DNA of 17,810 nt, from the IMG/VR virus record IMGVR_UViG_2541047874_000006. One strand, 5' to 3'. This DNA comes from a virus. Lineage: Duplodnaviria; Heunggongvirae; Uroviricota; Caudoviricetes. This document shows, one piece after another, positions 17,010 through 17,810 of this stretch. The translations under genes were made by a program, and so were the position numbers. Under the pieces are notes generated by a model that worked only from the letters and a program-made list of their open reading frames with translations, ran no database searches and was not told where the DNA came from. The stretch's first letter is position 1. The number at the start of each line of letters is the position of its first letter.

Positions 17010-17030
17010 CGCCGGGCTTTATGCCCGGCG
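17010..17030. terminator. Hairpin terminator between convergent genes
   Basis: CGCCGGGC / GCCCGGCG 8-bp stem with 5-nt loop; on the minus strand it is followed by UGAUUUAUU; the stop codon of the minus-strand gene lies in the loop. Confidence 0.55.
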
Positions 17031-17810
17031 CAATACTGTTTGATACAGCAAATTATCTAGCTCCCGAACATCTCCGTCTCTGCTGTCCGGTAAAATCGGT
17101 GGAATTTCTCCACGCGCCAGTTCTGCACGAATAAACGCATGTAGCAATGGACGGCGCGGACCATATTCCGCTTCTCCTGCGCGCTGTTTACGTTCCAGCA
17201 ATTCGTCTATTTCTGCGCGTAACGGCGCATCAAGTTCGCTTCCCGCCAGTAACTCAGCAAAGCGCATTGGCGGCACACCTTTACCCGATTCGACCCAGCG
17301 CACAGCCAATAGCGGGCGCAGTACGTAAAAGTATTTTTTCAGCCGAACTTCGTCGCCCTGCAAATAACCGCGAAAGTTTTTTCGCGCCATCGAATAATAA
17401 TGCCAGCGCGCACGTAGCGGAGAAAACCACTTCGGCACCATTGCCTTTAGCGCCGTTATCGTTTCTTCGTCTTGCTGATAGACCACCGGTGAGTCCAGCC
17501 ATTCAATCAGCGTCGGGTTCGCGCCTTTCAATAATCCCAGCGCCTTACGCCACTCCCAGCCGGAAACATCCAGCTCGTCGTCGATGGGCAGTTCGATAAC
17601 ATCACGTGGCGACTCCACCCGCAGATACCATTCCAGCGGATGAACATACAAAAAACGCACATCATAATCGCTGTCTGGCGAAGCAAATCCCCAGCCGCGA
17701 CTCCCTGATTCGCAGGCGTACAGCACTTTAACGCCATACCGCCGTTCAATTTCCTTTAACTGCTGCGATACCCGTTCACGCATCGCAGCACTGACTCCAT
17801 TTAAGGACAT
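17019..17810 (-). CDS. Nucleotidyltransferase-fold protein (Pol-beta superfamily motif GS...DxD)
   Basis: 263 aa; N-terminal motif YACESGSRGWGFASPDSDYDVRF matches the hG[GS]-x(9-13)-DhD signature of minimal nucleotidyltransferases; helical C-terminal half. Specific family not assignable without a search. Confidence 0.6.
   Translation of the reverse strand: MSLNGVSAAMRERVSQQLKEIERRYGVKVLYACESGSRGWGFASPDSDYDVRFLYVHPLEWYLRVESPRDVIELPIDDELDVSGWEWRKALGLLKGANPTLIEWLDSPVVYQQDEETITALKAMVPKWFSPLRARWHYYSMARKNFRGYLQGDEVRLKKYFYVLRPLLAVRWVESGKGVPPMRFAELLAGSELDAPLRAEIDELLERKQRAGEAEYGPRRPLLHAFIRAELARGEIPPILPDSRDGDVRELDNLLYQTVLRRA

Follow-up and report, generated by a model that had tools for sequence, protein, structure and literature searches.

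The window, by which is meant the whole 17,810-nt stretch of DNA that was analysed, ends in a minus-strand ORF (17019–17810) encoding a protein of 263 amino acids, with the start codon (ATG, 17810–17808) forming the final three bases of the window and the TAA stop codon located at 17021–17019. The sequence-only reading of this DNA had described a 263-aa protein with the GS/DxD signature of Pol-beta-type nucleotidyltransferases (NTases), encoded convergently to the neighbouring genes, and this description was borne out by the translation and by the orientation of the ORF against the plus-strand tail genes. The signature codons (G36-S37-x10-D48-x-D50) lie at 17661–17705 on the minus strand, and the region reads C33-E-S-G36-S37-R-G-W-G-F-A-S-P-D46-S-D48-Y-D50-V-R-F, which fits the Pol-beta pattern hG[GS]-x10-D-h-D-h. 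The profile search proposed in that reading for placing the NTase in a family gave a full-length match to Pfam PF10127 (RlaP; E=6.5e-97, 324.5 bits against a curated cut-off of 23 bits), with residues 10–256 aligned to positions 1–248 of the 249 in the profile. This was the sole Pfam match of the protein, and no match to an MNT, AbiEii or CD-NTase family was obtained. Residues G36, S37, D46, D48, D50, D70, E73 and D81 were each retained by 97% or more of 81 homologues (54–95% identity), while the signature residues were invariant among 14 close homologues; D70, E73 and D81, all conserved, are candidates for the third carboxylate. With both the full-length RlaP profile and the Pol-beta signature present, the ORF (hereafter rlaP) encodes an intact RlaP-family NTase of the Pol-beta fold. 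No model for the protein was found in NCBIfam and no match in a PDB sequence search, and an AlphaFold2 prediction made from a shallow alignment of 14 sequences gave a pLDDT of 59, with the NTase domain below 50. The RlaP family was reportedly defined by Burroughs and Aravind in 2016.

The exact protein (EQV89843.1/WP_021551590.1) was traced to ‘Escherichia coli KOEGE 71 (186a)’ (assembly GCA_000459855.1), and an identical protein was present on at least 12 contigs from many samples. The rlaP gene of KOEGE 71 shares approximately 91% DNA identity with E. coli alleles. That it might be a transferred allele was considered and rejected, since the flanking core genes at the locus (metH, yjbB, pepE, rluF and yjbD) are equally diverged, being 90–93% identical to those of E. 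coli. The host of this DNA thus represents a divergent Escherichia lineage.

The rlaP gene ends in a terminator-like hairpin (17006–17034, minus strand; arms 17034–17023 and 17017–17006, loop 17022–17018) that was detected by folding and by a terminator scan. The minus-strand RNA reads 5'-AUUGCGCCGGGC-AUAAA-GCCCGGCGUGAU-3' (window 17034 to 17006), with the 5-nt loop holding the UAA stop codon of rlaP (17021–17019) and the final three sense codons (R-R-A) contributing to the 5' arm. The 66-nt context of the hairpin folded at −30.2 kcal/mol (z=−4.45), with none of 200 shuffled sequences folding as well, which upheld the earlier remark on a hairpin with a stop codon in its loop. The pattern scan classed it as terminator-like on the minus strand with 12 pairs, eight of them G-C, followed by a weak U-tract (UUAUUGCUGG). 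An equal hairpin was found in tail-less E. coli and in Superficieibacter, and the DNA held in common with tail-less E. coli begins at about 17004, showing that the hairpin is part of the rlaP unit; the arrangement of a stop codon in the loop and codons in the arm is limited to Escherichia and Superficieibacter. Judging from its sequence, the hairpin would serve as the intrinsic terminator of the rlaP operon, and it may also terminate the convergent transcript of the tail cluster, whose end lies at a distance of 13 nt.

The window comprises the entire insert between lysC and rlaP. This insert is a tail cluster, including a lysis cassette and baseplate genes, that begins with a Mor-type activator, followed by a holin, an SLT transglycosylase and a membrane protein, then Gp37, sheath, tube and tape measure proteins, continuing with gpU, X, D, V, W, J and I and finishing with a tail fibre, a DUF4376 protein and a 151-aa ORF. 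Genes for head proteins, replication or an integrase were not found in the cluster, which is therefore a headless phage-tail cluster and not a prophage. The stop codon of the 151-aa ORF (17003–17005) marks the junction with the RNA-repair module to which, as described below, rlaP belongs, and a tail-bearing E. coli locus (L001) aligned to a tail-less one (L011) only from position 9148 of the former, equivalent to window position 17004. The cluster fills the gap between lysC and rlaP in 196 of 5426 complete E. coli genomes and also in Phytobacter and Superficieibacter, and the counterpart in Salmonella is STM4198–4219, with gtr genes inserted; a literature search with the Salmonella locus tags returned nothing useful about the nature of the cluster. 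The DNA identity of the cluster (approximately 79% to Salmonella and 89–93% to E. coli) resembles that of the flanking core genes, which suggests long vertical residence at this locus, as would be expected of a tailocin-like element.

Two disruptions were observed within the tail cluster of this strain. An IS256-family element of 1315 bp (15542–16856), with a minus-strand gene for a 402-aa Mutator-type transposase and imperfect inverted ends of 30 nt, is flanked by 8-bp target duplications (15534–15541 and 16857–16864; CATTAGGA) and splits the 151-aa ORF into two parts (15227–15541 and 16857–17005). This insertion is recent, as other contigs with the identical RlaP do not contain it. The baseplate gene I (12217–12848) shows a 1-nt deletion relative to E. 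coli in a T-run at about 12563–12564, leaving ORFs of 126 and 86 codons, and this frameshift represents either a defective tail cluster in this strain or a homopolymer error in the draft assembly.

To establish whether rlaP forms part of the tail element, the distribution of the two was compared. Among the 5426 complete E. coli genomes, rlaP was present in 1630, the gene for its slipin partner in 1631 and the tail sheath gene in 196, with the junction of the 151-aa ORF and rlaP likewise in 196. About 1434 genomes carry RlaP and slipin between lysC and yjbD without the tail cluster, and the two of these that were inspected directly have the gene order lysC, a zeta-toxin-family gene, convergent rlaP and slipin, and yjbD. 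The reverse was found in Salmonella, where the lysC–yjbD locus has the tail cluster and lacks rlaP and slipin. E. coli K-12 has neither module, with a 252-bp spacer in their place; this spacer keeps approximately 130 bp of the DNA upstream of slipin and a 26-nt piece of the leader RNA described below, a scar which identifies the K-12 site as a deletion derivative. The tail cluster also adjoins rlaP in Phytobacter massiliensis and Superficieibacter, and such adjacency in several genera reflects shared synteny at a single variable locus. These results place rlaP in the resident accessory chromosome (30% of E. coli), neither as a core gene nor as cargo of the tail element, and an old insertion of the tail cluster followed by independent loss of each module fits the pattern. 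The suggestion that the gene may be flanking host DNA was thus correct, with rlaP at lysC–yjbD in tail-less E. coli, Klebsiella, Kosakonia and Franconibacter. It had also been stated beforehand that finding the gene at the same locus in genomes without the tail cluster would indicate ordinary core-genome context; the gene is indeed there, while its context proved to be accessory.

It should also be noted that at the position of the tail cluster, tail-less E. coli carry a gene for a 308-aa P-loop kinase of the zeta-toxin family (PF06414; 4242–5168 in both L011 and L012), convergent with rlaP and with no annotated antitoxin neighbour. This gene was considered as a possible partner of RlaP, for instance as an RNA kinase, and was set aside as an unrelated insertion because no homologue lies beside RlaP in 80 loci of other species. 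Genes resembling ccdA or ccdAB toxin–antitoxin genes were seen in some relatives between pepE and rluF or beside yjbD (L004, 946–1239; L018, 274–510; L019, 286–818), a further sign of a hotspot for small insertions in this region. Alleles of rlaP from tail-bearing (L001) and tail-less (L011) E. coli differ with a dS of approximately 0.31, and their slipin genes by about 4–5% at the DNA level. The dS of E. coli core genes is expected to be far lower, and the lysC–yjbD locus thus appears to hold old, divergent haplotypes.

The genes just beyond position 17810 were inspected, as had been advised, with the expectation that any partner of the NTase would lie there. In tail-bearing E. coli, a gene for a 375-aa slipin (Pfam Band_7) is located 5 nt upstream of rlaP, followed by approximately 530 bp and then yjbD. 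In KOEGE 71, this position is occupied by a 64-codon ORF corresponding to the C-terminus of slipin. Alignment revealed two deletions, one reaching from within the leader RNA to the middle of slipin and the other inside slipin, with a 116-bp middle fragment left between them, so that what survives is approximately 70 nt of the leader RNA and the Band-7 gene in two fragments. The promoter and its upstream repeats are present, and the locus contains neither rtcB nor rtcR. With its leader truncated, its Band-7 gene fragmented and both rtc genes missing, the KOEGE 71 locus is an operon remnant and not a working member. The expected partner therefore exists in relatives, as Band-7/slipin together with RtcB and RtcR in other genera, but is reduced to the 64-codon remnant in KOEGE 71 itself.

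Loci encoding RlaP were scanned using one genome per species, which returned 80 loci. RtcR and/or Band-7 and/or RtcB were encoded directly upstream of RlaP in about 50 of these 80 other-species loci, which belong to Enterobacterales, Pseudomonas, Burkholderia and other beta-proteobacteria. In Klebsiella aerogenes, Kosakonia and Franconibacter, rtcR is divergent from Band_7–RtcB–RlaP at yjbD–lysC, with no tail cluster. An RtcB gene accompanies RlaP at yjbD–lysC in Klebsiella, Kosakonia, Franconibacter and Phytobacter, as well as at about 45 other loci; neither KOEGE 71 nor any Escherichia examined has rtcB at the locus. Proximity to an RNA ligase gene, from which the family takes its name, belongs to the context and is no requirement for RlaP homology. 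The rlaP gene is the last in an RNA-repair operon of the chromosome. This operon is ancestral at the yjbD–lysC locus of Enterobacteriaceae and is widespread among gamma- and beta-proteobacteria; in its full form it consists of a divergent rtcR, a sigma-54 promoter, a structured leader RNA that is tRNA-like, and genes for Band-7/slipin, the RtcB ligase and RlaP.

In about 60 loci, rtcR is followed by a sigma-54 promoter with the consensus TGGCAC-N5-TxGCA. Both E. coli and KOEGE 71 (TGGCACACTTTTAGCA) have kept it, at a position outside the window and approximately 440 bp upstream of rlaP. Upstream of this promoter, repeats of the form TTATCC-N5-GATAAA-N4-GATA-N5-GATAAA adjoin the start of rtcR in dozens of species and form candidate binding sites for RtcR (L003, approximately 9440–9500; L011, approximately 7530–7590, minus strand; L014, 4185–4240; all outside the window). 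They persist in Escherichia, including KOEGE 71, though rtcR has gone from the locus. The control region of the canonical E. coli rtcBA operon contains GATAT-type repeats instead. No rtcR was found at the yjbD locus in the 5426 complete E. coli genomes, 4849 of which carry the canonical rtcR–rtcBA near malT, and the canonical rtcR and that of the yjbD locus share approximately 67% DNA identity.

The space from the promoter to Band-7 is occupied by a conserved, structured leader RNA that has a canonical tRNA T-arm (GGTTCGAnTCC), promoter and leader together being located outside the window at L003 9564–9637, L001 11225–11402 (minus strand) and L014 4318–4500. Among 18 sequences, 22 of its 31 predicted pairs showed compensatory double changes, compared with 8.3±1.8 in shuffles and 3–7 in slid controls. 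The strict T-arm motif is absent from the eleven loci that lack Band-7 and have RtcB immediately behind the promoter. A search of the region upstream of slipin against Rfam (E≤1) returned just a 15-nt fragment of the tmRNA T-arm and ARAGORN predicted no tRNA there, so the leader RNA does not belong to a curated family. Haplotypes of E. coli differ in the leader T-arm by a C-G to U-A double change, and a second conserved block was observed further downstream of the leader (GCCGGTAA...CAGGCAAAA...). [quoted passage not shown]

The yjbD–lysC locus was found in several states of decay. RtcB has been lost in Citrobacter, K. oxytoca, Superficieibacter, Mangrovibacter and Brenneria, and both RtcR and RtcB in E. 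coli, leaving leader, slipin and rlaP. In a Klebsiella metagenome-assembled genome (L027), RtcR is followed by RlaP with no match to Band-7 or RtcB. E. ruysiae has lost the tRNA-like RNA and, by a separate deletion, slipin, and has kept rlaP, while in the KOEGE 71 lineage slipin and most of the leader were removed by the two deletions described above and rlaP is the sole intact gene. Compared with other Escherichia alleles, rlaP shows a dN/dS of 0.03–0.08, a value which averages over the whole divergence and not merely the time since the slipin deletion. The rlaP gene is intact in all stages of decay at this locus and is under purifying selection.

RlaP has been characterised for P. fluorescens and P. 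aeruginosa (Carruthers, Fatma and Huang, 2025; bioRxiv 10.64898/2025.12.29.696909). The two enzymes are reported to extend the 3'-OH of RNA by one or two NMPs, with a preference for cleaved-tRNA mimics, and to be required for restoring aminoacylation of over-trimmed tRNA; their structure joins an NTase domain at the N-terminus to a helical C-terminal domain (bioRxiv 10.64898/2025.12.29.696909). Pseudomonas RlaPs encoded in the same operon context are 57–60% identical to RlaP of KOEGE 71. The KOEGE 71 protein resembles them in its full-length profile match, its GS/DxD signature and its arrangement of an N-terminal NTase and a C-terminal helical region, and, as in Pseudomonas, the genes for its orthologues in other genera immediately follow RtcB in an operon under RtcR control. 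It differs in that the KOEGE 71 gene has no adjoining RNA ligase, regulator or Band-7 partner, in that the enteric operon ends with RlaP, without RtcA downstream, and in the placement of the stop codon in a terminator-hairpin loop with the last three sense codons in the 5' arm in Escherichia and Superficieibacter.

RNA-repair systems composed of Band-7 (SPFH), b7a-tRNA and RtcB were likewise predicted by Burroughs and Aravind (2016), according to the quotation in bioRxiv 10.1101/312249, and PaFlo8 of P. aeruginosa has been placed in the rtc locus (PMC13086221). Relatives of KOEGE 71 share with these systems a T-arm RNA, Band-7, RtcB and RlaP under control of RtcR and sigma-54, whereas the Escherichia locus lacks RtcB and RtcR, and KOEGE 71 keeps only approximately 70 nt of the RNA and the two Band-7 fragments. 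The E. coli rtcBA operon with RtcR and the Salmonella rsr–yrlBA–rtcBA operon have the same form of sigma-54 promoter (TGGCACG-N4-TTGCA, compared with TGGCAC-N5-TxGCA), an RtcR-type activator as in the ancestral arrangement, and the theme of RNA repair with a tRNA-like cofactor RNA. However, the rlaP operon lies at another chromosomal locus and has no RtcA, Band-7 and b7a-tRNA take the place of Ro60 and YrlA, and the canonical E. coli rtcBA operon is without RlaP.

By analogy with the Pseudomonas enzymes, RlaP would extend the 3'-OH ends of broken RNA, for instance tRNA halves, by one or two NMPs, and these additions would replace nucleotides trimmed by ribotoxins ahead of religation; this function, as applied to enterobacteria, rests on the 57–60% identical homologues from one preprint. 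The religating enzyme would be RtcB, which in KOEGE 71 would necessarily have its gene at some other genomic site. The 3'-OH products of RlaP are not direct substrates of RtcB (bioRxiv 10.64898/2025.12.29.696909), leaving the pathway incomplete even where RtcB is adjacent. Transcription of rlaP may still proceed from the retained sigma-54 promoter and the upstream GATAA-repeat sites approximately 440 bp upstream, with the canonical RtcR as a putative activator in trans. The different appearance of the upstream sites of canonical RtcR itself, and the DNA identity of only about 67% between the two rtcR genes, would argue against such activation. With its partners in cis gone, RlaP of KOEGE 71 may be idle. 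Taken as a whole, it is considered highly probable that rlaP of KOEGE 71 encodes an intact RlaP and is the last gene of an ancestral RNA-repair operon, situated in host DNA separate from the tail cluster, with the function and mode of expression proposed here.

A different origin had been offered by the sequence-only reading, namely that the gene is cargo, such as a defence or toxin–antitoxin NTase, at the end of a phage-tail element. Like MNT-type antitoxins (MNT/HEPN), AbiEii and CD-NTases, RlaP has a Pol-beta fold with a GS...DxD signature, but it matches PF10127 only, and its conserved neighbours are RtcR, Band-7 and RtcB instead of a HEPN, AbiEi or effector partner. A defence or toxin–antitoxin NTase would be recognised by a known model and a cognate partner, neither of which was found for RlaP, and PADLOC gave no match for RlaP or slipin. 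The direct abutment of rlaP on the last tail-cluster gene, equal in E. coli, Phytobacter massiliensis and Superficieibacter, would suit a cargo gene, yet the presence of rlaP is not tied to the element, the two being present or absent independently in both directions. A phage origin might also be read from the strong match to phrog_14344 (E=7e-122) and from the RlaP homologues of T4 and jumbo phages; the closest homologue among 50,697 phage records is, however, just 48% identical and belongs to Pseudomonas jumbo phages, and the match to phrog_14344 probably reflects prophage predictions that overrun the rlaP boundary. As rlaP also has an upstream control region of its own, of the sigma-54/RtcR type, and belongs to an rtc operon, an origin as cargo is very improbable. 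It is similarly hard to credit that the RNA-repair module is functionally coupled to the tail cluster, for example with rlaP protecting the producer cell. The modules are adjacent at the same locus in four genera, but either occurs alone in many genomes, they are transcribed convergently and their promoter types differ. Contractile tail particles kill through membrane puncture and not through RNA damage, and we know of no reason for a link between RNA repair and tail particles.

The main rival to the preferred reading is that rlaP of KOEGE 71 has become a functionless relic of an operon that is being dismantled, a gene without useful expression by now and intact only for lack of time. The deletion of the slipin partner and leader RNA points that way, as do the absence from the locus of rtcB and rtcR throughout the Escherichia examined, the loss of the whole module in about 70% of E. 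coli and the decaying surroundings, with the IS256-family element in the adjacent ORF and the frameshifted gene I. Against a relic stand the full-length ORF with every catalytic-motif residue, the low dN/dS given above (itself a whole-divergence average), and the retention of the sigma-54 promoter, the upstream repeats and an AGGA Shine–Dalgarno sequence before the ATG. Slipin-less lineages with an intact rlaP have moreover arisen independently (the KOEGE 71 lineage and E. ruysiae, with Klebsiella L027 similar), and the identical protein recurs on the contigs from many samples mentioned above. A relic is accordingly regarded as unlikely. A tentative and doubtful suggestion is that RlaP outlasts the other genes of the operon through being useful alone or in trans. 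The retained sigma-54 promoter and GATAA upstream repeats would in that case make it a remote member of the canonical RtcR regulon, which would repair RNA 3' ends for an RtcB encoded elsewhere or act without a ligase.

Both the RlaP family and the rtc-type operon are already known, and nothing here is surprising to a specialist. For the annotation of this DNA, the tail element ends at about window position 17003 with resident chromosome from 17004 onward, and rlaP should be counted neither as cargo of the element nor among candidate defence genes. Many sequences of the predicted b7a-tRNA, with clear covariation, are also available from this locus. For the study of RNA repair, it represents a small natural experiment, in which a single locus shows every stage in the decay of the RtcR/Band-7/RtcB/RlaP operon, with RlaP kept longest.
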